Notes under the pieces: generated by a model | Told to the model about the DNA's origin: nothing | Seen by the model: only the letters and a program-made list of their open reading frames with translations | Database searches by the model: none | Shown: one piece after another, positions 24,309 through 56,582 of the stretch | How positions within the stretch are numbered: position 1 is the stretch's first letter | How the letters are laid out: every line of letters starts with the position of its first letter | Source: Armatimonadota bacterium | GTDB lineage: Bacteria > Armatimonadota > HRBIN16 | Direction: 5' to 3' | NCBI GenBank assembly: GCA_963677485.1 | Contig: OY781964.1 | Location: 2,816,001-2,880,000 of the forward strand | Length of the DNA stretch: 64,000 nucleotides | Program-made: the position numbers and the translations under genes

Positions 24309-26183
24309 ATGAGGAGAACTATGCGGTTGTCTACTTACGAGGAACAAACATCGCCATTCATCGGCGCTCTTGAGACCATGTCTGCCAAACAGCTCACCGA
24401 ACTATCCGAGAGTGATGTGTTGATGCATTATATGATAAGAGCACAAATCCATCATCGTGCTTCAGTCAAATATTGCGAGGAGGGGTTCGATGAAGAATCG
24501 AAACAGCAGCTTTGTGAATCCATCGCATTCAAGTTCATGGTCAGCAACGATGATGAAAAACGACGATTTTACCCCAGTGTTGTATTTACGAATGGTCAGA
24601 ATGGGAAAGTCGAATTTCCAAGCTTGTCGAATTTCGACAATAAGGTTTATGATTACTTAAGGGGAAGAATTCATGACACCCAAAATCCGGCGATTATAGC
24701 TCGATTTGCAGATATCATTTGGTGCGCCCGCAGGTCAGATAGTTATACCCAGGCTAAAGTGGCGATCGATGCATACCATGCATTTGTTGACAGATGGCTG
24801 GCAACCCCAGCCAATACACTGAACTACGGAATAGACTTGTGCGATGCACTAATACGTTCCATAAACATAGCCCAACAACTGAAACAAAACGATCTAGTCG
24901 AAACAGGTGTCCATAAAGCGATTGATGTATGTAATCAGCTTGATGCAAACAATTATAACATGCCTATGCAAGATATTCTGGCAGGCCTGTTGACAAAATA
25001 CGATAAAATTAAGCAGTACGTTAGCGAAACAAATCTCCAAGACATGATCAAAAACGCTAATAGTTCCATCAAATTATTGGACGCTCAATATCCGTATTAC
25101 GCTGATATGCAACGATGTTTGATGGTTTCTATACGTAAGATCTACACTATATTGAACAATGCGAGAATGATTGAGGAAATGACAAAGCGTATTGCAGATA
25201 ACTGTGTGTTTGAAGCAAATTGGATTGTGGATAATCTTCATTTGGGACATCGTCAGGCGATTCGCCTAGGGGAAGAAGCTATTATCGAATACCATAAAAT
25301 CGGCGACAAGCACCTGATCTGTGCCGTCCAAGCACATATTTTCGGCTGGCACAAAGCCGCCGAATCAGAGATGTCGGTATTTGATACATCAGTAGAAGTA
25401 CCTAAAGACGAAATCGATAGATGGCTTCATAAATTCAAAGTGGCTCCCATATCGGACGTTGCCATGCTGATATGCAGCGACCGTACCTTGATGCCCTCAG
25501 CCATTAGAGCAAGAATGCAAGCAACGCGATATAAAGAGGAATTTCCTTTGATATTTGCGATTAACCATCAACTAGTTTCTGAAGAAATGAGCTTGAAATT
25601 CATACCAACCACCGAAAGTGGGGATGAACTACTTGAATACTATACCGCTTGGAATATACGGATTAATTACCAGTTTGTAGCTCGTATATTATTGATAAAG
25701 CTATTTGACCACCTAGAACAGTCACATAAAGATTACATTGAACATTTCGTTAAGCACGTAAGTGGATCGCCAATGATTAAGCATTCCAGAGCAACCATAG
25801 TTGTATGGGCGTTCGAAGCACAATCAAGAGGTGACTACACATCGTGCATACATATTCTCGCGCCACAAATTGAAGGATGTCTTCGAGATATTGCGAAACA
25901 TCTGGCAATTCAGATAACAGAAATGAAAAGGCAGGGTGAATGGAGCTACATTACTTTAAATACCATTATTCAACGAATATCTGATACAAAACGAGTCGAT
26001 GACGACCTATTACGCTTCATAAACCTTTTATTATGCAGCCAATACGGTGATAATTTACGAAATGAAGTATGTCATGGGATTGCGAATATCCGCGATATGT
26101 CAAGAGAAAACGCGTTACTTATGATCTATATCGTATTAATGTTATGCTCCATTGATCTAGAATCAACACCACAGGCGAACTAA
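24309..26183 (+). CDS. DUF4209-like protein with C-terminal HEPN-type RxxxxH motif
   Basis: ILAPQIEGCLR and NLRNEVCHG near the C-terminus; helical N-terminal region; markedly AT-rich. Confidence 0.75.
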   Translation: MRRTMRLSTYEEQTSPFIGALETMSAKQLTELSESDVLMHYMIRAQIHHRASVKYCEEGFDEESKQQLCESIAFKFMVSNDDEKRRFYPSVVFTNGQNGKVEFPSLSNFDNKVYDYLRGRIHDTQNPAIIARFADIIWCARRSDSYTQAKVAIDAYHAFVDRWLATPANTLNYGIDLCDALIRSINIAQQLKQNDLVETGVHKAIDVCNQLDANNYNMPMQDILAGLLTKYDKIKQYVSETNLQDMIKNANSSIKLLDAQYPYYADMQRCLMVSIRKIYTILNNARMIEEMTKRIADNCVFEANWIVDNLHLGHRQAIRLGEEAIIEYHKIGDKHLICAVQAHIFGWHKAAESEMSVFDTSVEVPKDEIDRWLHKFKVAPISDVAMLICSDRTLMPSAIRARMQATRYKEEFPLIFAINHQLVSEEMSLKFIPTTESGDELLEYYTAWNIRINYQFVARILLIKLFDHLEQSHKDYIEHFVKHVSGSPMIKHSRATIVVWAFEAQSRGDYTSCIHILAPQIEGCLRDIAKHLAIQITEMKRQGEWSYITLNTIIQRISDTKRVDDDLLRFINLLLCSQYGDNLRNEVCHGIANIRDMSRENALLMIYIVLMLCSIDLESTPQAN

Positions 26184-34985: not shown

Positions 34986-34991
34986 TTGTGG

Positions 34992-35216
34992 GGGTGGGAT
35001 ATGGCGTGCCGTGCCCACCATGATCATCGGACGGATCTGACGGATCGGTCCGATTAAACGTACTAGGGGCGGTTCGCGAACCGCCCTTGGGCGTGGGGAC
35101 CACGCCCCTATGATCGAATAAACGGTTGTGGGGCGGTAGGGGCGGGGTCACCTCGCCCAAAAAACATCGTTCGGCTGGGTTACCCCGCCCCAGGGCATGG
35201 CACGCCATGCCCCTAC
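34992..35216. repeat. REP cluster between convergent genes
   Basis: ATCGGACGGATCTGACGGATCGGTCCGAT; AGGGGCGGTTCGCGAACCGCCC (35065-35086); GTAGGGGCGGGGTCACCTCGCCC (35136-35158); GGGCATGGCACGCCATGCCCCTAC (35193-35216). Confidence 0.85.
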
Positions 35217-35234
35217 GTGCGTCCTATACCGTGC

Positions 35235-37439
35235 CTACACCACCTGCTGGGTGCGGTTGATGATCATATCCTGCCACTGCTTGTTCAACGTGGCGAAGCG
35301 GGCGCTCCATCCAGCCACACGAACCGCGAGGTTAGGGTACTTCTCCGGGTGTTTCTGAGCATCAAGCAGCACGGCGGAATCCACGACATCGATGTGCAGG
35401 AAGCAGCCACCCATCTTCTGGAAGCCCTTGAGCAAGCTGACCATGGTCTGAATGCCCTTCTCTCCCTTGACGCTGCTGGGCATGATCTTCAACTCAAATG
35501 CGCCGATGCCGGGCATGTTGGTGAAGTCCATCTTACAGTAGCTGCACAGAGCCGCGGTCGGCCCGTATTTGTCGGTGCCGGGCGATGGCGAGAAGTTGGT
35601 GGCCAGGATGTCGCCAGCATGATGCCCATCGGCTGTAGCTTTGCGGAGCGGGCTCCACTCGATCTCGCGACCAAAGGTGCTGATACCCGCCGGGCGGAAC
35701 ACGCCTTTACGGAACTTGGTCTCGGCGACCAAACCGGTGAAGCTGTTGTATACCCGCTGCGCCATGGCATCCGCCTCATCGTTGTCGTTGCCGTATGCGG
35801 GCACTCGGCTGGCGATCAGCCGTCGCAGGCTTTCGTTGTCGCGCCAGTCGTTGCGCATGGCGGTCACAATGTCATTCCAACTAATCAGCTTGGCATCATA
35901 AACGGCATGTTTGATGGCCATCAGGCTGTTGGCGGTGTCGGCCATCCCGCCGGCATGGCAGGCCAGTTGGCAATATTTCGATCCGCGGTCATTGTAATCG
36001 GCGGCTTTTTCGATACAGCCTTCGACGAACAGCGAGGGAACCGTGGCCGGTAAGCCGCCTATTTGCCAGGCATCCGCGATGTCGTGATGCCACTTCACGT
36101 GGGTAGCCAGACGCTGCTCGAATGCCGCATACAGGTTCTCGAAACTGGCATACTGCGGAATCAACGCGTTGGCGTTTGTGACGCCCATGGCGTCCTGAAG
36201 CAGTTGCAGGGTATCAAAAGGCACGTAGGTGAAGGCGGTCTTGCCCGGCACCAGCACCTCCCAGCAGCCATCATTGGTGAAGTTGCGCGCCTCTTCCAGC
36301 GGATATCCCAGCTTCGTCATCGCCTCAATCACCACCGGCTCGTTGTAGGTGGCGATGATCCCGCCGCCCAGTCGCTGCACCTGTGCGATGCGTTTCAAAA
36401 GCAACTCTGGCGATTTGGGGTTCAGACGCACCGCGATCGGGAAGTCGCTCATGCGAAGCTCTTCGACCACATCCAGCACGAGGTAGGTGACCGGGTTGGT
36501 GACCTCTACGCCTTTTTCGTCGATCCCACCCAATACGATGTTCTGGTAGAACTGCGCGTCACCGGAGCCGGGGCCGACAGGGCGCGTCCACTCCGCACCC
36601 ATTAGCCAGAAGTGCGCCACCAGCTCGCGGGCTTCAGCGATGGTGATCTTACCCGCATCGAGGTCTTTGGCAAGCAGGGGGCCCAGCATCTTATCGAACC
36701 GGCCGATACCGCTCCAGTTGCCGCACAAACGGGTCCATGCCCAGGTGAGATGCAGTGAGAGCACCGCCTCAAAGAAGTTACTGGGGGGCAGCTCGGGAAC
36801 GCGTTTCATCGCGGCCACGATCTGTGTTTCGCCGTTTTTGGCTGCCAACTCCATATTGCGTTTGTGCCAAGAACCGTAGGCGTCCAGGCAGATCCGCATC
36901 GACTCCAGGTAGTCGCGCTGTCTCTTGCTGAGGTCTGTGTCTTTCAGACGGGCTTCCAGCTTCGCGCGGATGGCGCTGTGACCGGATTTTAGGGCCTGTT
37001 CGTAGCCGAAAGTGGTGTGGCTGACGCTACTCTGGTTGTATAGAGGTACCGAATGCCCGGCGGCCTCCAGCACGGTGGCACTGCCAATCAGGCGCATACC
37101 GGGTTCATACCGGAGGGGGGCATTTTCGGAAATCAGCCGGATGCTGTGCGCATACTTCATGTATTCGCTCATACCGGTGACATCGACTTTATCTTCCAGC
37201 TTGAAGGGCAGAGGCTTCATCTCGCGGCCCCATTCGCCCATCACCGCCTTGGTGGCGAGACGGATGGTGTCATCGCAGAGGTGCATTTGGTGCGGCAGGG
37301 TGACCACAGGCGTGTTTGCCGACCCAGGAGCGAGTGTCTGTGCGGCACCCTTCTCCTTGACGTCAGCCACCGCAGCTGCGCCTAATATGCCTGTACCGAT
37401 AGCCGTCGCCCCAGAAAGTAGGAACTTGCGTCGATCCAT
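35235..37439 (-). CDS. Glycyl radical enzyme (PFL family) with N-terminal Tat signal peptide
   Basis: Gly loop VRVAGWS, Cys loop NDGCWE, GRFDK, ATADG, LLDAQKHPEKYPNL; N-terminus MDRRKFLLSGATAIGTGILGAAAVA with GGGAGG RBS. Confidence 0.9.
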   Translation of the reverse strand: MDRRKFLLSGATAIGTGILGAAAVADVKEKGAAQTLAPGSANTPVVTLPHQMHLCDDTIRLATKAVMGEWGREMKPLPFKLEDKVDVTGMSEYMKYAHSIRLISENAPLRYEPGMRLIGSATVLEAAGHSVPLYNQSSVSHTTFGYEQALKSGHSAIRAKLEARLKDTDLSKRQRDYLESMRICLDAYGSWHKRNMELAAKNGETQIVAAMKRVPELPPSNFFEAVLSLHLTWAWTRLCGNWSGIGRFDKMLGPLLAKDLDAGKITIAEARELVAHFWLMGAEWTRPVGPGSGDAQFYQNIVLGGIDEKGVEVTNPVTYLVLDVVEELRMSDFPIAVRLNPKSPELLLKRIAQVQRLGGGIIATYNEPVVIEAMTKLGYPLEEARNFTNDGCWEVLVPGKTAFTYVPFDTLQLLQDAMGVTNANALIPQYASFENLYAAFEQRLATHVKWHHDIADAWQIGGLPATVPSLFVEGCIEKAADYNDRGSKYCQLACHAGGMADTANSLMAIKHAVYDAKLISWNDIVTAMRNDWRDNESLRRLIASRVPAYGNDNDEADAMAQRVYNSFTGLVAETKFRKGVFRPAGISTFGREIEWSPLRKATADGHHAGDILATNFSPSPGTDKYGPTAALCSYCKMDFTNMPGIGAFELKIMPSSVKGEKGIQTMVSLLKGFQKMGGCFLHIDVVDSAVLLDAQKHPEKYPNLAVRVAGWSARFATLNKQWQDMIINRTQQVV

Positions 37440-37618
37440 CGTAGCCTCCCGTGTTTGTGTGCAAACAGGTGATTGATTACCTTGATTATACCCCATATTC
37501 GTAACTACTAAGCCCTAAATAGCAATGTCCGGGGCGGTCTGCCGGATAGCCGTACTGTCACACCTGGGCTGGCAGCTTATGAAAGGCCATCAGCCCACGC
37601 TGCCGCGGGTTTTACCAC

Positions 37619-37846
37619 CAGTCTATTACCCACAAGTCCAGATTGGGATCGTATCGACCATGTACCGCGACATAAATGTCTCGGCTATTGATCATCAAGC
37701 CCGCTAAACCGGGCTGCGGAGCTCCTTGCCGACAAAGATAACGTTAATTTAGACTGCTTCAGCAGTCTTGGTGTTCAATAGCCGAGACATTTATGTCGCG
37801 GAATCGGTGACCTACTGGCCATGCAATATTTGTGGGTAATAGACTG
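37619..37846. mobile_element. Intact MITE with 17-bp TIRs and 11-bp target-site duplication
   Basis: CAGTCTATTACCCACAA...TTGTGGGTAATAGACTG flanked by GGTTTTACCAC (37608-18, 37847-57); internal perfect 27-bp inverted repeat. Confidence 0.9.
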
Positions 37847-37927
37847 GGTTTTACCACCCCGGAAACGTGCTTCCTTCACCGCGCGTCTGATGGGTGACAG
37901 CCAGCAGACGGGGGCCGGGCCTACCAA

Positions 37928-38245
37928 CGCCCGCCGGAACGCGGGCCGGTATTGATAAGCGATGGGTGACAGTGCCCGTACCGGGACGCAGTCACGGACG
38001 GGCCACGGAACCCGTCGCCAAAGGTCAGTGGTGCTGATTGTAGGCGACTAGCCACCGTGCCACGGGTTTAGTCACCCACACGACTACGTTCCGGGAGCTG
38101 GCGCTCCGGGAACTGCGTCAAGTGTGGGTTCCTGCACCGCGTGGCTGATCATTAGCGGCCGGCGTCGCTTCGCTCCGGCCGGCGCAGGAGAACGTCGCGA
38201 CGCATGCGGAATAATGAATGACTATCTCCAGAGCTGAGTAGTCAC
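37928..38245 (+). ncRNA. Candidate structured ncRNA or folded ssDNA element, copy 2
   Basis: Homologue of 31694-32012. Confidence 0.55.
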
Positions 38246-38353
38246 CCAAATACTATTAGTATAGTGGGTAAATGAACACAGGGTTTATGTGGCAGTTTGA
38301 CAGGGAATAGGACCGCTCTTGAGTTCAATGCAGCCCGTACTACTGATACGACC

Positions 38354-38437
38354 GTAGGGGCGTCCCTTGTGGGCGCCCAAAACGTTACTTTGTTGATAGT
38401 TAGTGTTCTTTAGGGCGCCCACAAGGGACGCCCCTAC
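38354..38437. repeat. Inverted REP doublet (REPIN-like); intron insertion target
   Basis: GTAGGGGCGTCCCTTGTGGGCGCCC (38354-78) and its exact reverse complement (38413-37). Confidence 0.9.
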
Positions 38438-39179
38438 GTGCGCCTGCAAGCGTACGCGAACAAAGAGGTGCAATTCCTCTTCGAGGCCACGCCAACTCTG
38501 GCCTTGTAGTCGGCAGTAACTGCGTCACCGCGAGGTGGGGTGGAGAGCAACTGTTGGCGAGTGACCAGTCCGTAGGATAACGAACCCGTTTCGGCCGCGT
38601 AGAACCAACGAGCCAGCGTAGGAATGGTGAAGTTTGTGCTGTGAAAACAGTGCCTGTTATGCTTGAGAGTGAGCGTATAGAGCAGTGATGGGGGTTGCGA
38701 GGTGCTTGGGGATGGAATGGTCACAAGAGGTCGCGTAAGAGAAGCAGGGAGATCTGCCTGCAGTAGTGGCGATAATAAGTTCGTTGCAGGCAGAAGTCAG
38801 AGCGCCCATAGTAGCGTTGAAGCGTCTGTAATGGATGTGGAGCCAAGGGAGCGCAGGAAGGTAGATCCGTGAAGTCTCAGCCACCGAATATAGCTCCGCG
38901 CGAGAAGTGCCTAAAAAAAGGCTAAACAAGCGGAAACAACTAGCAGGCGACTGCTCAGCCATCGGTGGACTGGACAAATCGGATGTTGGTGCCCCATCAT
39001 ATGGGGGCAAAGAAGGCTGTCGCCTTCAATGCTGAGTATAGGTGTTTACACTACAAACATCCTGTGCAAAGAATCACCAATCCTCAAATGAGGTAACACT
39101 ACCAACTGGAGAGCCGTGTGCGGGAGAACCGCACGCACGGTTCGGAGGGAGGGGGAACGAAAGTTCTCCCTACCCCTAT
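38438..39179 (+). mobile_element. ORF-less group II intron (probably bacterial class E-like)
   Basis: 5' GTGCG; domain V GAGCCGTGTGCGGGAGAACCGCACGCACGGTTC (39111-43, AGC triad); domain VI ending CCCTACCCCTAT; 742 nt with no RT ORF. Confidence 0.93.
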
Positions 39180-39239
39180 GACCAGTTACTTACAAGATCG
39201 GTCGGATCTGGCTGATCCGACCGATACACAGGTTGTGGC

Positions 39240-40229
39240 TTACTCTTGTTTTGGGGGACGAGTCATCAGTTCATATACAGCCTGATGGATGTTCATGCTG
39301 CCGTCCACCACATTGCGAACGACTTGGCATAACGGCATCTCGATGTCCAGTCTGGCGGCCAAATCACACACCGCATAACTGGTCGGGACACCCTCCGCAA
39401 CCTGGCGCAGTTCCTGAAGAGCTTGGTAGAGGTTCATCCCATCGGCCAGGAAATGACCGACGCGGTAGTTTCGGCTGAGCCGACTGCTGGCGGTGGCTAC
39501 CAAATCGCCCACTCCCGCCAGGCCGATGAAAGTGCGCTCCTGGGCTCCCAGCGCGATGCCCATACGGGTCATCTCAGCCAGGCCGCGGGTGATCAGCACC
39601 GCTTTGGTGTTATCACCGAAACCCAGACCGTCACTGATGCCGGCGGCGATGGCGAACACGTTCTTGATGGCACCGCTCAGCTCCACACCGATCACATCAG
39701 GATTAGTGTAGACCCGGAAGGTATCGTTCATCAGCATCTGCTGGGTCGCCTTCGCCGCCACCAGACTGCGGCTGGCTGCCACGGTGGCCGAAGGAGCTTC
39801 GCGGGCAAGCTCTAAAGCCAGGTTGGGGCCAGACAGCGCCACGATGGCACTGACGCTCTGACCTAACACCTCGGAGATCGCCTCCGAGGGGCGTTTACCC
39901 TCATCTGTCAGCCCTTTGGCGGCGCTGATGATGATGGGCTGATTTTTGAGGTGTGGCTTACAGTCATGCGCAACATCCGCGACGCCCACTACCGGCACCG
40001 CGAAGATAATCTGCTCGCAGTCGCTGACCGCTTCCGCGATGTCGGTCACCACATTGATGCACTCAGGGAATGCATAGCCGCCTAAGTAACGAGCGTTCTC
40101 ACGCTCCTTCTGAAGCGTGTCGGCATGTTCGGGGTTGCGGTCCCACAGGGTGACGGTCGTTCCCTTTTTTGCCAGATGTATGGCGAGGGCGGTGCCCCAT
40201 GAGCCCGCCCCCAAGATTCCGACATGCAT
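39240..40229 (-). CDS. gpsA: NAD(P)H-dependent glycerol-3-phosphate dehydrogenase
   Basis: GAGSWGTALA, LSGPNLA, GAIKNV, GDNTKA, GDLVAT, SRNY. Confidence 0.96.
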   Translation of the reverse strand: MHVGILGAGSWGTALAIHLAKKGTTVTLWDRNPEHADTLQKERENARYLGGYAFPECINVVTDIAEAVSDCEQIIFAVPVVGVADVAHDCKPHLKNQPIIISAAKGLTDEGKRPSEAISEVLGQSVSAIVALSGPNLALELAREAPSATVAASRSLVAAKATQQMLMNDTFRVYTNPDVIGVELSGAIKNVFAIAAGISDGLGFGDNTKAVLITRGLAEMTRMGIALGAQERTFIGLAGVGDLVATASSRLSRNYRVGHFLADGMNLYQALQELRQVAEGVPTSYAVCDLAARLDIEMPLCQVVRNVVDGSMNIHQAVYELMTRPPKQE

Positions 40230-43053: not shown

Positions 43054-44244
43054 CTACCGCCCTGCCTTCCCAAAACACTCTAAAGCAGCCTGGTGGAATG
43101 GTATGGTTAATGGTGAACTATCGGTCATGTTCCCAACCTGAACCATGAACACGTATATCAACTCGTTCTCCGGGTCGATATACATATCGGTGCGGAAAGC
43201 TCCGCTGTGAGCGTATGGCTTTCTGCTTAGCGGATCACCGCTGACGAAGTATTGCCCCGTGTTCCAGCCAAGCCCGTAGCCGGTTTCTGCCACACCATCG
43301 TTCAAAAGATGGCCGGTCGTGGTGGTGGTTGCCTGCCCTACTGCCTGCTCCGACAGTACGCGCACGCCCTTGTACACACCACCGTTTTACAGCATCTGAC
43401 AGTATTTCGCGATATCTTTCGCATCCGACAATAGCCCGCCTGCTGCAAAAGGTATCCGGTTTCGGTCAGTGAGCGGGAATGTGACAGGAAATGGCGTTTC
43501 CTCTAACTCGGTGCCCGCCTGGTTTGGGGTGTAGAGTTTGGCAAGTCGGCTTACCTGTGCTGCGGTCGGAATGAAGCGGGTTTGACTCATACCCAGCGGT
43601 TTCAGCAGGCGCTTTGTCAGGAACTCGCCGTTACTCATACCTGTCACCACTTCGATGATACGGCCAGCCGTTTCGTAGCCGCAGTTGCCGTAGGAGAACT
43701 GGCTTCCAGGTTCAAACTGCAGTGGGGTCATGGCTGCAGCCAGTACTCGCTGGTATTGCGAGGGGGTATCTACAAGCGGTGTGTATGGGTAGTTAGTCAA
43801 CAGGCCGCTAGTATGGTTGAGTGCCTGCAAAATAGTGATGGGTGCCTTCGGCTTTCGCAGCAGTTTATGCTCGTCGTCACCTTCCACCAGCACCATCTGC
43901 CCCTTGAACTCCAGAAGGTACTTCTCTACAGGGTCATCAAGCTTTAGCTTGCCTTCATCAACGAGCATCATGATGGCTGTGCCAGTCATCGCTTTGGTCA
44001 TGCTGGCAATAACGAACATCGTGTCTGCTTTCATTGGACGCTTGGTCTCAAGGTCTGCATACCCGACGGATTCAATGGCCAGAACCTTCTGCTTGTTGGC
44101 CACGAGCATCACCGCACCGGCAATCTGATGTTTGTCAATCGCGGGCTGAATGGATCTGGCCAGCATACCCGGCTGGTACGGTGATGCGATGCTTGCGGCG
44201 TTACATCCAAATAGCAGGATCGCTAAGATCAGGGCGATAAGCAC
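43054..44244 (-). pseudogene. Serine hydrolase (class C beta-lactamase-like) interrupted by one in-frame TAA
   Basis: SMTK, YGN and HSG motifs; ORFs 43387..44244 and 43054..43377 are in the same frame (CAG ATG CTG TAA AAC GGT GGT GTG). Confidence 0.8.
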
Positions 44245-47799: not shown

Positions 47800-47999
47800 T
47801 GGTGAGCTCCCCGGACACCAAAAGCAGTCGGGGAGCTAATCTCACCCCTTAGCTGGGGGTGAAGGAGAAGGATTGGATGCCGGAACCGCCCCTGGTGGAA
47901 AACACCGTGACGTAGATAGGCATCCTTCTCCCAATCAACCCATATCGAACAGTATCTTGGGAGAAAACCCCGTGTTCGCTAGGCTGATTTGGTTGATTG
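47800..47999 (+). ncRNA. IS110 bridge RNA
   Basis: 5' hairpin(s), then a target loop closed by GGATGCC/GGCATCC with ACCGCCCCT and ACGTAG, then a donor loop closed by CAATCAACC/GGTTGATTG with ACAGTATCT and GCTAG. Ends approximate. Confidence 0.85.
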
Positions 48000-48032
48000 C
48001 ACCATCAATCACTACCAACTGGAGATTACCAC

Positions 48033-49325
48033 ATGCACGAAGTTGAAGACAAAATCTACATCCATTATGTCGGGATCGACATCTCGAAATTGACGTTTGA
48101 CGCGTCTGTATTAGGTTCATCGCACAAGCCGATAGACCATAAGGAGTTCAAGAACAACAAGGCCGGATACAAGGAGTTGTTGTCATGGGTGAAGAAGCTT
48201 ACCCGAACTCCCGCCTTGTATGCGGCTGAAGCCACCGGGCCTTACAGCCGACCGCTGCTTGATTACCTCTACGAGCACCAGCACGATGCTGTCCAACTGG
48301 AGCCAAAACGGGTTCTCTATCACCGCAAAGCCAAAGGCTGGGAACAAAAGACGGACTGCTCTGACAGCGTGCTAATCGCTGACTATGTGAAAAGTCACAA
48401 TGTCTCACTCTATGTCCCTCGTCTAGCATGCTATGATGCGCTTATTGGTTACACCAATGACCGCCGTATGCTGGTGCAACACAGACAGGCGATCGCCCAG
48501 CGCCAAAGCTGTCGGCTTACGCGGAGCACAGTGCTGGACGAGATGATCGCTTTTCATGACATGGGCATCAAAAAGCTTGATGTTCAGATCAAAGAGCTTG
48601 TGATGAGTTCACCGCAGATGACCGAAGATATGGCTCTGCTGAAGAGCATTCCGGGTATCGGCGACGTCACAGCAAGCTATTTCCTTGCGAAAATCGGTGA
48701 TGCTAAACGATTTGAAACATCGAAAGCGGTCGCGCGCTATTTCGGAATGAACCCCTGCCCGCAACGGTCAGGAAGCTGCAAGACATACGACGGCTCCATA
48801 TCCAAGATGGGTGACCGATATATGCGGACATTACTCTACTGTGGATCGAGCACTGTGGTGAAGATGGTCAACGGTAAGTCGAAAAAGCTTGGCCAGAGCA
48901 TGCACGACTTCGTGAAGGAACTGCAGCATCCGAATTTGGTAAAGAATCCCAATAAGAAACCGAAGTCCAAGCGAGTTGTCCGGTGCGCAATCATGCGCAA
49001 GCAGCTGGTGCTCATGTGGTCGGTATTAATCAGCCGTCAGCCATATGATCCAAACTTCGGCATCGAACAAGCTTCAAATGCGGCCAACCAGCAACCGCTG
49101 ACCGACGCGAACGGACATGTCCAGGATCGTGCCGGAGCGGCCCATGATATAGCCGGTGTAGGCAATGATCCTGGGCTGGACGTGAGCGTTCCAAGACGGG
49201 GATGCGTGGATGGAAATCCCACCAATGAGCCCACTCCTGCCGGCGGTGGTCGGCCCGCATCCCGAAACCGGCCATCGCGCAGTCGGGTGGGCAACAAACC
49301 GAGGGTTCTGACACCAGTATCCTAG
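48033..49325 (+). CDS. IS110 family DEDD recombinase/transposase with C-terminal extension
   Basis: GIDISK, EATG, KTDCSDS (DEDD), SIPGIG, QRSG (catalytic Ser), ISKMG; GGAGA RBS before ATG 48033. Confidence 0.95.
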   Translation: MHEVEDKIYIHYVGIDISKLTFDASVLGSSHKPIDHKEFKNNKAGYKELLSWVKKLTRTPALYAAEATGPYSRPLLDYLYEHQHDAVQLEPKRVLYHRKAKGWEQKTDCSDSVLIADYVKSHNVSLYVPRLACYDALIGYTNDRRMLVQHRQAIAQRQSCRLTRSTVLDEMIAFHDMGIKKLDVQIKELVMSSPQMTEDMALLKSIPGIGDVTASYFLAKIGDAKRFETSKAVARYFGMNPCPQRSGSCKTYDGSISKMGDRYMRTLLYCGSSTVVKMVNGKSKKLGQSMHDFVKELQHPNLVKNPNKKPKSKRVVRCAIMRKQLVLMWSVLISRQPYDPNFGIEQASNAANQQPLTDANGHVQDRAGAAHDIAGVGNDPGLDVSVPRRGCVDGNPTNEPTPAGGGRPASRNRPSRSRVGNKPRVLTPVS

Positions 49326-54070: not shown

Positions 54071-54437
54071 TTACCTTATCCGCATCCCGCCACACAGACT
54101 ACCTCGAAACCGGCCCTTTACCCGCCACATCATGAATTCCGCCAGCTGCAGATCACGCTGTTAGCACCAAATCTCCATACTCTGCCTGCCCATTGCGACC
54201 ACCACCGCATGATAGTGCCATAGCCCTTCTAAAAACGTCTTTCTGCAACCCTCCTGTGAGCATAGTAGCATACACCTCCTACACACCAAAAAACACGATT
54301 TCTTCATCACCTGGCTTGGTAGACTTCAAGTACCGATCGGCGTTAATCCCGAAACGACGATTAGGCTGACTGCCGCTAGCCTGTCCCGCATGACATATCG
54401 TGCCCTACAGTGCTCTATGATACCAGGAGGTGATACA

Positions 54438-56582
54438 GTGGAAAAAACATATCCAAACTCGATCTGCCGGAGAACATGGTGGATCGCGTCACTGCTGCTA
54501 TTGACATGCTCTCTTCAGTCGTTCGCTGTGGGGGGCACAATTGAAAGCTGGGGATTTCGGCATACCGTCCCAGGCGAACTCAACGGATTCCAGGCTATCG
54601 CCGCTGGAATCGGCCATACCGCCGGGTTGAAATACGACGGCTCTGTGGTGGTATGGGGTGATAACAGTGCAAACCAGTGCATCGTACCCCTGCCCAATTC
54701 GGGATTTACCGCTGTGACGGCCGGAAGGAATCATACGGTAGGGCTCAAACTCAACGGATCGGTGGTGGCCTGGGGCCAAAACTACAACGGTCAGCTCAAC
54801 ATTCCAGCGCCAAACCAGAATTTTACGGCTATCTCCGCAGGATATAAACACACCCTTGGATTGAAGAGTGATGGCTCAGTGGTGGCCTGGGGCTATAATA
54901 GTTATGGTCAGAGCACTGTACCTTCCCCGAACACCGGCTTCATTGCCGTTGCCGCCGGTTACAACCACAGCGTGGGGCTAAAGACCGACGGCTCGCTGGT
55001 GATATGGGGCGACAACACTTCCGGCCAGACCAACCTCCCGTCTCCCAACCTGGGTTTTACGGCCATCGCGGCAGGAAATGCGCATACTGCAGGGCTGAAA
55101 ACCGATGGGTCTATTGTGGCCTGGGGAGACAACACCTACGGGCAATGCAGTGTTCCAGCACCCAACCTGGGTTTTACCACTGTAACTGCAGGTTACGAAA
55201 CTACCATCGGCCGTAAAAGCGGCGGGGTTCTGGTGGCATGGGGTAACTCCGCAAGTGGACAACTCAATATCCCTGCACCTAATTCCAGCTTCAAATCCGT
55301 GGTGGCAGGCCAGTTCTCGGTTTCAGGTTTGAAATACGACGGCTCTGTGGTGGCATGGGGTGACAACTACTATGGCCAGACGGGTTTACGAACCCCCAAT
55401 ATCGACTTTTCGGCTATCAGTGCCAGCCCATACCACACCCTGGCTCTGAGGTCGGATGGCTCCATCATGGCATGGGGCAATGACGGCAACGGCCAAAGCA
55501 CCGTGCCGGTACCGAACACCAGCTTTACCGGTGTGGCGACGGGTCAGTTCCACTCCCTTGGCCTGAAATCAGATGGATCCGTCGTGGCTTGGGGTGACAA
55601 CTTCAACGGCGAGTGCGATGTACCGGCCCCCAACCAAAACTTCACTGCCGTGACCGCCGGTGCGAGGTATTCAGCCGGACTGAAGAATGATGGCTCCGTG
55701 GTGGTCTGGGGTGACACGGCCAATGGTCTTGGCAGCGTGCCCGCTCCCAACACCGGATTCGCCGCCATTGATGCTGGTTATGGTTATCTGGTTGGGCTCA
55801 AGGCAGATGGTTCCGTCGTCGCCTGGGGCGACAACGCATCAGGCCAGTGCAATGTGCCGTCTCCCAACACGGGTTTTACGGCCGTAGCCGGAGGGGTATG
55901 GCATTCCGTTGGGGTGAAATCCGATGGTTCTCTCGTGGCATGGGGCGACAACAGCTACGGTCAGTCTAACATACCCACGCCAAACACAGGCTTTATAGCG
56001 GTGGCGGCCGGTGACATGCATACCGCCGCGCTTAAGGCAGGCGGATCGATTGTGTCTTGGGGTGTCGATAACTACGGTCAGGTGGATGTGCCAGCACCAA
56101 ATCTGGGTTTTCAAGCCATCTCCCTGGGGGGCGCTCACACCGTGGCAATACGCAGCATGCAACAGGTCACAGGGCAGATCGTGCTGAACGGCTTCCTGGG
56201 TAATCTGGCATCTCACCCAATCAACATATCGGTCATTTCGGGAAACCCGATGTCGCCCTTCAGCCAAACCAACAGCCTGTTCCCGTTGAGCGACGGCACA
56301 TTCACATTCAACACTATCCTACCGCCGCCATTTGACATGAGGGTACGCGGCCTTAACTTGATCGGGCTGCTGATACCGGCTGTGCAGAAGCTGACCGGTG
56401 TGAACATATCGCTAATAAACGGCGACGCCGATGGCGATAACCAGATCAACCTGTTCGACTTCGTGGTGCTCGATAAAAACTTCGGCACGATGAACCGAAT
56501 GGCCGACTTGAATGGTGATGGTCAGGTAAACCTGTTTGACTATGTGATCATCGACCAGAACTTCGGCGCCAGAGGTGATTAG
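54438..56582 (+). CDS. Secreted RCC1/BLIP-II repeat protein with C-terminal dockerin-like domain
   Basis: About 13 repeats of AGxxHxxGLKxDGSVVAWGDNxxGQxxVPxPN; GDADGDNQINLFDF / ADLNGDGQVNLFDY; GTG start with AGGAGG RBS. Confidence 0.9.
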   Translation: MEKTYPNSICRRTWWIASLLLLTCSLQSFAVGGTIESWGFRHTVPGELNGFQAIAAGIGHTAGLKYDGSVVVWGDNSANQCIVPLPNSGFTAVTAGRNHTVGLKLNGSVVAWGQNYNGQLNIPAPNQNFTAISAGYKHTLGLKSDGSVVAWGYNSYGQSTVPSPNTGFIAVAAGYNHSVGLKTDGSLVIWGDNTSGQTNLPSPNLGFTAIAAGNAHTAGLKTDGSIVAWGDNTYGQCSVPAPNLGFTTVTAGYETTIGRKSGGVLVAWGNSASGQLNIPAPNSSFKSVVAGQFSVSGLKYDGSVVAWGDNYYGQTGLRTPNIDFSAISASPYHTLALRSDGSIMAWGNDGNGQSTVPVPNTSFTGVATGQFHSLGLKSDGSVVAWGDNFNGECDVPAPNQNFTAVTAGARYSAGLKNDGSVVVWGDTANGLGSVPAPNTGFAAIDAGYGYLVGLKADGSVVAWGDNASGQCNVPSPNTGFTAVAGGVWHSVGVKSDGSLVAWGDNSYGQSNIPTPNTGFIAVAAGDMHTAALKAGGSIVSWGVDNYGQVDVPAPNLGFQAISLGGAHTVAIRSMQQVTGQIVLNGFLGNLASHPINISVISGNPMSPFSQTNSLFPLSDGTFTFNTILPPPFDMRVRGLNLIGLLIPAVQKLTGVNISLINGDADGDNQINLFDFVVLDKNFGTMNRMADLNGDGQVNLFDYVIIDQNFGARGD

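Follow-up and report, generated by a model that had tools for sequence, protein, structure and literature searches.

A gene within a 64,000-nucleotide stretch of an Armatimonadota genome (contig OY781964.1, positions 2,816,001 to 2,880,000; the whole stretch is referred to here as the window) encodes a glycyl radical enzyme (GRE) that begins with a twin-arginine (RR) leader, i.e., the type of leader that directs folded proteins to the twin-arginine translocation (Tat) system. The leader is conserved in relatives from several phyla, which fall into a single clade, and we consider it fairly probable that the enzyme, once activated in the cytoplasm, passes through the Tat system to the periplasm and there carries out a radical 1,2-elimination on a substrate derived from glycans. 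To our knowledge, characterized GREs are regarded as confined to the cytoplasm or to microcompartments, and they need a cytoplasmic radical S-adenosylmethionine (SAM) activase, SAM, and a reductant. The protein represents a GRE subfamily with a new conserved targeting signal and, we infer, a new cellular location. The features of the gene and its product are as follows; GRE4 is a paralog in the same genome, L033 and L034 are homologous loci, and A1 and A2 (115 sequences) are alignments of family members.

35235..37439, minus strand: GRE precursor gene, stop codon included, 734 amino acids (open reading frame [ORF] and translation, Pfam, AlphaFold2 [AF2], and Foldseek)
37445..37450, minus strand: Shine-Dalgarno sequence GGGAGG, 5 nt ahead of the ATG (read in the DNA; kept in GRE4, L033, and L034)
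37365..37439, minus strand: predicted Tat-type signal peptide, residues 1 to 25, consisting of M-D, RRKFLL, a Gly/Ala-rich hydrophobic (h) region, and AVA (translation; conservation in the clade)
37290..37364, minus strand: variable linker, about residues 26 to 50, from the leader to the first conserved block (poorly conserved columns in A1; low predicted local distance difference test [pLDDT] values)
35688..37079, minus strand: pyruvate formate-lyase (PFL)-like barrel domain, residues 121 to 584 (Pfam PF02901, E 5.6e-90)
37017..37019, minus strand: His141, aligned with His164 of glycerol dehydratase and His166 of propanediol dehydratase (phmmer against 1r8w and 5i2a; invariant in 115 family sequences)
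36258..36269, minus strand: Cys loop GCWE, residues 391 to 394, with Cys392 as the predicted thiyl site and Glu394 as the predicted base (translation; aligned with C433/E435 of 1r8w; invariant in A2)
35295..35603, minus strand: glycine radical domain, residues 613 to 715 (Pfam PF01228, E 7.5e-23)
35307..35321, minus strand: Gly loop RVAGW, residues 707 to 711, with Gly710 as the predicted radical site (translation, checked against the DNA)

The minus-strand ORF spans 35235..37496, and a preliminary description of this DNA had placed the start codon at the ATG at 37439. Its coordinates and the motifs it listed (the ribosome-binding site [RBS], MDRRKFLL, AVA, GCWE, and RVAGW) all proved correct on re-reading. 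The 40 nt upstream of the gene differ from those of GRE4, L033, and L034 at 22, 22, and 2 positions, respectively, and GGGAGGCT, immediately 5' of the ATG, is identical in all four. Within the first 28 codons, the window gene shows 11, 10, and 9 synonymous differences from GRE4, L033, and L034, and 8, 7, and 2 nonsynonymous differences, which are concentrated at the c-region of the leader. Because synonymous changes outnumber nonsynonymous ones and the RBS has been kept amid diverged upstream DNA, the leader is, by these comparisons, translated and under purifying selection. A longer ORF starting from the ATG at 37496 (19 additional residues) was rejected, as this codon is a Leu codon in the 96%-identical L034 and the start is not conserved. 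The opposite error, i.e., that the leader is an annotation artifact left untranslated by a downstream start, is a general possibility to which the window protein lends a specific candidate, Met51. However, Met51 is not conserved among homologs, the RBS directly ahead of the ATG at 37439 has been kept, the leader shows the substitution pattern of coding DNA, and independent gene calls across many assemblies begin at the leader, so that we regard an artifact as extremely improbable. The preliminary description had itself raised a downstream start, for which the conserved RBS and the mostly synonymous codon changes leave little room.

The leader contains the three parts of an export signal. MDRRKFLL is followed by an h-region of 17 uncharged, Gly/Ala/Thr-rich residues (mean hydropathy, 1.66), and AVA occupies residues 23 to 25. 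The motif D-R-R-K-F-L-L corresponds to the S/T-R-R-x-F-L-K pattern at the boundary between the n-region and the h-region, and the clade consensus in A1 is RRxFLK. In the AF2 model, residues 1 to 43 have pLDDT values of <50 and lie outside the fold, which begins near residue 50; the N-terminus is thus modeled as disordered, as expected for a signal peptide and linker. A loose RR-leader regular expression applied to the six frames of the 5.22-Mb genome returned 53 candidates, about 8 of which look genuine by eye. With so few real-looking RR leaders genome-wide, two of which belong to the window GRE and its paralog, the leader exceeds what chance would provide. The other RR-leader proteins of this genome comprise a GH63/MGH1-like protein, an NPCBM plus melibiase protein, a CBM4_9 protein, an amidohydrolase, a 4Fe-4S ferredoxin, and a 944-amino-acid protein without a Pfam match. 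Since RR leaders sit on such proteins, this type of leader appears to mark exported carbohydrate-active and redox proteins in this organism. One of the glycoside hydrolases has a leader very similar to that of the GRE, and its score with a curated Tat-signal hidden Markov model (HMM) is 16.6 bits (cutoff, 16.7). Apart from a match to such HMMs, the GRE leader has, by prediction, every computationally testable property of a functional Tat signal. The machinery is encoded as well, by one TatC gene (206 bits) and two TatA/B/E genes, and a search of 10 further genomes with leader-bearing GREs detected TatC in all but one, a 1.7-Mb metagenome-assembled genome (MAG).

A homolog search scored 8000 candidates, of which 1022 had E values of ≤1e-20; the best 120 (90% clusters) were all at least 50% identical to the window protein. 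A strict leader rule (RR in the first 40 residues, then at least 12 uncharged residues, with hydropathy of >0.6) captured 78 of these 120, and a slightly wider rule captured 79. At least four of the sequences missed by the strict rule look like starts called within the leader, and most of the others begin ≤38 residues from the first conserved block, i.e., they are leaderless or truncated. In a 50%-identity library, the family that aligns from approximately residue 52 forms a discrete set of about 20 clusters, beyond which scores fall from about 480 to about 340 bits and most clusters are leaderless. A scan of one genome per species yielded 598 pattern matches, of which 526 were confirmed; among the best 80 loci, with N-termini judged by eye, we distinguished the following: (i) 26 loci with RR leaders, from Planctomycetota/Phycisphaerae, Armatimonadota, Hydrogenedentota, some Bacteroidota, and a few otherwise labeled sources; (ii) 10 loci, all from Bacteroidales, in which RK, RS, or RA replaces RR and the xFLK motif and h-region are kept; and (iii) 44 loci in which a leader is absent or unclear. 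Cultured carriers exist, e.g., an Alistipes isolate (L079). One RR-leader GRE (L041) lies in a MAG labeled Chthonomonas calidirosea, which we take to be an aerobic species, and has a rubrerythrin gene just downstream.

We placed 88 sequences in a FastTree phylogeny with SH-like supports only, i.e., 75 loci, three paralogs from the genome studied here, and ten distantly related proteins without a leader; loci L052, L069, L078, L085, and L112 were left out because of a broken frame or a contig end. All 38 leader-bearing sequences group together in a single 44-member clade (SH-like support, 98), which spans Planctomycetota, Armatimonadota, Hydrogenedentota, and Bacteroidota, and a leader was found in none of the 44 sequences outside this clade. 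The pattern fits one gain of the leader, long retention, and few losses, with the exact number of changes unsure in a quick tree of this kind. The leader has been long retained in several phyla of diderm anaerobes. Conservation across the homolog clade, proposed as a check in the preliminary description, holds on both counts (79 of 120 homologs and a single 44-sequence clade) and extends across phyla, contrary to the outcome in which homologs lack the leader. In the wider GRE superfamily, represented by 149 sequences, RR leaders were found only in P0122, which belongs to the same family, and in P0222, which is 31% identical to the query and heads a separate clade (P0222 and P0271-P0303). In this second clade, whose sources name Planctomycetota, Verrucomicrobia, and Kiritimatiellales, RR leaders occur in 18 of 34 close members and in none of 84 more distant relatives. 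Since this separate clade also bears RR leaders, they arose at least twice on GREs.

Twenty of the 120 homologs carry a Laminin_G_3/ConA-like domain inserted near residue 170, and 19 of these 20 are leader-bearing. Forms of approximately 960 amino acids with this lectin-type insert are found at loci L087, L100, L102, and L105-L107 and in proteins such as P0075 and P0083. In the Lentisphaerota forms L088, L094, and L095, which are leaderless, a different insert of approximately 170 amino acids lies closer to the N-terminus.

The protein behind the leader has the sequence features of the GRE superfamily, namely, a PFL-like barrel, a C-terminal Gly_radical domain with the RVxG motif, and the Cys of the Cys loop. 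The preliminary description had recognized a GRE with intact Cys and Gly loops, in agreement with the PF02901 and PF01228 matches and with the conservation of the radical residues in A2, in which R707 and C392 do not vary and at least 90% of the sequences have G710. An AF2 model built from the 115-sequence alignment has a complete fold (mean pLDDT, 91.3; predicted TM score [pTM], 0.90), and its top Foldseek matches are GRE dehydratases (TM score, about 0.8). GCWE and His141 align with their counterparts in 1r8w, 5i2a, and 6vxc, as is characteristic of GRE 1,2-eliminases/dehydratases. More fully, H141, S243, Y298, C392, and E394 align with H164, S282, Y339, C433, and E435 of 1r8w, which presumably have the active-site roles that we ascribe to them in glycerol dehydratase, and the family shows little or no variation at any of the five. 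Because these residues align, the catalytic apparatus of a 1,2-eliminase appears to be present. The Cys loop holds a single Cys instead of CC, and the protein is therefore not a classical PFL (TIGR01255, 84 bits versus 994), as the preliminary description had maintained. No NCBIfam model came near its cutoff for the window protein (PFL2-3, 305 bits versus 678; HypD, 299 versus 1100; CutC, 223 versus 1050; sulfopropanediol dehydratase, 239 versus 1000). HypD, CutC, and the sulfonate lyases were rejected as assignments, given scores far under the curated cutoffs, and on these profile scores the protein fits no characterized GRE family.

The window sits in a single 5.22-Mb contig (C1; 54% G+C) with nine Gly_radical matches. 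The MDRRKFLL leader occurs on two of the nine GREs, i.e., that of the window and the 85%-identical GRE4, and six others, which are 24 to 30% identical, are leaderless. The eight GRE genes outside the window are located on C1 at 251328-253550, 273219-275351, 1665289-1667442, 1750266-1752428, 2371734-2373896, 3366301-3368532, 3891560-3893776, and 5189804-5192182. Only one activase scores above the TIGR02494 cutoff (353 bits); its gene (5192183-5193073) adjoins that of a 792-amino-acid GRE, 2.3 Mb from the window gene, and a second activase fragment (5196478-5196750) holds an in-frame TGA stop. This single activase, which is 35 to 51% identical to the linked activases of relatives, may serve the many GREs of the genome. 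Clustering of 805 neighboring ORFs from 83 loci revealed one well-conserved partner of the family, a radical-SAM GRE activase encoded directly beside the GRE. These linked activases carry a CxxxCxxC cluster near the N-terminus, and a signal peptide was found on none of them. Among loci with at least 1200 nt of downstream sequence, 19 of 31 with a leader (13 of 22 with RR and 6 of 9 with variant leaders) have the activase next to the GRE, versus 4 of 39 leaderless loci. A leaderless activase is thus genetically coupled to leader-bearing GREs in relatives, and, because adjacency favors the leader-bearing loci, activation seems to matter especially for the exported forms.

The window GRE gene is monocistronic. 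Downstream lie convergent genes for a Zn-dependent alcohol dehydrogenase and a PfkB kinase, and upstream there is an ORF-poor region of approximately 1.7 kb followed by gpsA and a phosphoglycerate mutase gene; GH116, beta-helix, and GH42-like proteins are encoded further off in the window. The GRE4 gene (L028, G000:C1:243000-262000) is flanked by two PocR-AraC regulators, and genes for a DUF1559/N-methyl pseudopilin, a fucose-isomerase-like protein, an FGGY kinase, a class II aldolase, and a CBM4_9/GH42-like protein are located nearby, a neighborhood that may hint at a deoxy-sugar or diol signal. For relatives, hand-trimmed Pfam scans covered 119 of 188 neighboring proteins from 14 leader-bearing loci and 80 of 116 from 15 leaderless loci. 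The neighbors include sulfatases, rhamnosidases, a fucosidase, SusD, GH97, Gfo/Idh/MocA oxidoreductases, a 3-keto-disaccharide hydrolase, and AraC/IclR regulators; after the activase, the commonest clusters are AraC-type regulators (9 loci) and sulfatases (7 loci). No fixed pathway recurs among the scanned neighbors, and rhamnosidases and fucosidases recur too rarely to name a substrate. Since no fixed pathway recurs, a stand-alone enzyme acting on a glycan-derived compound would fit these contexts.

In the mechanism that we favor, the GRE precursor would be made and folded in the cytoplasm, where the leaderless radical-SAM activase would place the radical on Gly710. The folded, radical-bearing protein would then be exported by TatA/TatC via its N-terminal RR leader, which is probably cleaved after AVA25. 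In an anoxic periplasm, the Gly710 radical would give rise to a Cys392 thiyl radical through the usual GRE relay, and Glu394 and His141 would assist a 1,2-elimination resembling that of diol dehydratases on a hydroxylated substrate of glycan origin. Within this reading, export has the strongest support and the substrate the weakest.

Several observations weigh against activation followed by export. The window's own leader is reported by neither of the curated Tat HMMs Pfam PF10518 and TIGR01409, including when the leader alone is searched; PF10518 matches 12 of the 28 members of A1 at E values of up to 1, and two of these are leaderless. Details of the leader are atypical, with an n-region of only two residues and a c-region without a basic residue. 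Six leaderless sequences, i.e., the paralog GRE5 (71% identical to the window protein) and five others, lie within the leader-bearing clade, so a GRE of this family can work without the leader. For the Bacteroidales variants without the second Arg, activation before export could not apply if they are Sec exported. No activase gene adjoins the window GRE gene, and we know of no way to restore a quenched glycyl radical outside the cytoplasm. Regarding the substrate, H281, D447, and Y640 of 1r8w correspond to W242, a gap, and S587 in the window protein and are not conserved, the substrate pocket is predicted to differ from that of glycerol dehydratase, and the scanned neighborhoods are rich in carbohydrate-active enzymes (CAZymes) but heterogeneous. 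A sugar or polyol, as suggested in the preliminary description, stays plausible as a substrate, although such heterogeneous contexts lend it little weight.

Some of these points would suit a leader that serves for chaperone recognition or for docking at the membrane or TatBC without translocation, leaving the enzyme on the cytoplasmic side. The nitrate reductase NarG, for example, has a vestigial Tat motif and works on that side. GREs are oxygen labile and need a cytoplasmic activase, leaderless paralogs indicate that the enzyme can work in the cytoplasm, and Tat HMMs do not call the window leader. However, all three export-signal parts, including the h-region and AxA site, are kept across several phyla; the leader is present in 19 of the 20 forms with a lectin-type domain, a domain typical of extracytoplasmic proteins; similar leaders occur on glycoside hydrolases of the same genome; and no TorD/NarJ-type chaperone was found among the 119 scanned proteins. 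We therefore consider docking without translocation unlikely. It is quite unlikely, in our estimate, that the protein is exported without a radical and acts outside as a nonradical enzyme or binding protein, or is activated there by an unfamiliar route. The absence of an activase gene beside the window gene would fit such a protein, as would that of any known route that keeps a glycyl radical in the periplasm, but the 115 sequences differ little or not at all at Gly710, Cys392, and Glu394 and in the loops around them, and the activase is adjacent far more often in leader-bearing loci than in leaderless ones. Little credence is also given to an uncleaved leader that forms a Tat-inserted N-terminal anchor and keeps the catalytic domain attached to the inner membrane on its periplasmic side. 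The 17-residue h-region and the 25-residue variable linker behind it would suit a tether, whereas the h-region is Gly/Ala/Thr rich, its mean hydropathy of about 1.7 is low for a stable anchor, and small-x-small motifs follow the h-region in most members.

If the enzyme is exported as we favor, it might also attack glycans directly, by abstracting a hydrogen beside a ring hydroxyl of an oligo- or polysaccharide and then eliminating the neighboring O-substituent. Water, a glycosidic oxygen, or a decoration attached as an ether or ester could serve as the leaving group, and in the Hydrogenedentota forms the polymer would be bound by the lectin-type insert. The case for such an attack consists of the leader, the lectin insert, and the CAZyme- and sulfatase-rich neighborhoods, and we regard it as a doubtful extension. 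If it were true, anaerobes would possess a radical, nonhydrolytic means of breaking recalcitrant carbohydrates, i.e., an anoxic counterpart of the oxidative enzymes of aerobes.

Other elements of the window were noted in passing. The region upstream of the GRE gene (37500-39240) contains no ORF of >117 amino acids; it includes a group II intron domain match (RF00029, 39109-39179, plus strand; 58.7 bits versus a gathering score of 40) and long inverted repeats, e.g., 51-nt arms at 37665-37715 and 37751-37801, and may consist of an ORF-less or decayed group II intron and elements resembling miniature inverted-repeat transposable elements. The spacer between the convergent PfkB and GRE genes (34986-35234) is filled with GC-rich inverted repeats, with 21-nt arms at 34996-35016 and 35193-35213 and 22-nt arms at 35139-35160 and 35170-35191. 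These resemble repetitive extragenic palindromic elements and might act as a bidirectional terminator; a simple terminator scan found no terminator in the spacer. A PF00144 beta-lactamase-family serine hydrolase frame (43054-44244, minus strand) is split into two adjacent ORFs of 285 and 107 amino acids, and into three pieces in L034, and may be a decayed gene. The window also encodes a DUF7380/DUF4209 protein (24309-26183), an IS110-family transposase (47997-49325), and an RCC1-repeat protein with a terminal dockerin domain (54390-56582), all on the plus strand.

A large, multiphylum clade with a Tat leader implies that a protein bearing a carbon radical can cross the Tat pore and work in the periplasm. 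If this is true, the glycyl radical would be a new class of "cofactor" for Tat biology and the periplasm would be a new compartment for radical enzymology; radical chemistry may then occur in the outer compartment of sugar-degrading anaerobes. Because the carriers, among them Bacteroidales of the rumen and gut, are anaerobes that degrade glycans, the reaction may be a missing step in anoxic carbohydrate turnover. A full-text literature search, whose reach did not extend to supplementary sequence similarity network tables, found no Tat-targeted, exported, or periplasmic GRE; the portions of PMC9324843 and PMC9719856 that it returned contain co-occurrences of the terms on unrelated topics.

Known systems offer several points of comparison. 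Among solved structures, those of 1,2-propanediol dehydratase, glycerol dehydratase, and HypD come closest (phmmer E values, 3e-68 to 2e-65; Foldseek query TM scores [TMq], 0.80 to 0.83; identity, 23 to 25%). The B12-independent glycerol dehydratase of Clostridium butyricum (1R8W) and the GRE 1,2-propanediol dehydratase of Roseburia inulinivorans (5I2A/5I2G) share the ten-stranded barrel with the window protein (TMq, 0.81 to 0.83), and their Gly loop, Cys-x-Glu loop, and active-site His, Ser, and Tyr align with it. Their first approximately 150 residues are replaced here by a shorter, family-specific N-terminus behind the RR leader, and these dehydratases are cytoplasmic or microcompartment bound. 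HypD, a trans-4-hydroxy-L-proline dehydratase (6VXC), is likewise a GRE eliminase with Cys-x-Glu, is not known to carry a signal peptide, and is the second-best NCBIfam and PDB match; with 299 bits against a cutoff of 1100, the window protein is not its equivalog. Microcompartment GREs with N-terminal encapsulation peptides resemble the window protein in that location is set by an N-terminal extension. Those peptides are short amphipathic helices, whereas the extension here combines an RR signal with an h-region and an AxA site; among the scanned neighbors, no genes for shell proteins were found.

Sulfatases and the anaerobic sulfatase-maturating radical-SAM enzymes provide a case in which a cytoplasmic radical-SAM enzyme modifies a periplasm-bound protein of anaerobic glycan degraders, as we propose for the GRE. 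Sulfatase genes, some with RR leaders, occur near family members in 7 loci, a link to the GRE that consists of adjacency, and the formylglycine of sulfatases is a stable covalent change, unlike a radical. We know of no Tat substrate with a protein-based glycyl radical. The Tat-exported cofactor enzymes, such as the dimethyl sulfoxide/trimethylamine N-oxide reductase family, periplasmic hydrogenases, and Fe-S proteins, follow the same logic as that proposed here, in that the center is completed in the cytoplasm and the folded protein is exported by an S/T-RRxFLK leader; the difference is that the "cofactor" of the window protein would be a protein glycyl radical set by a radical-SAM enzyme.

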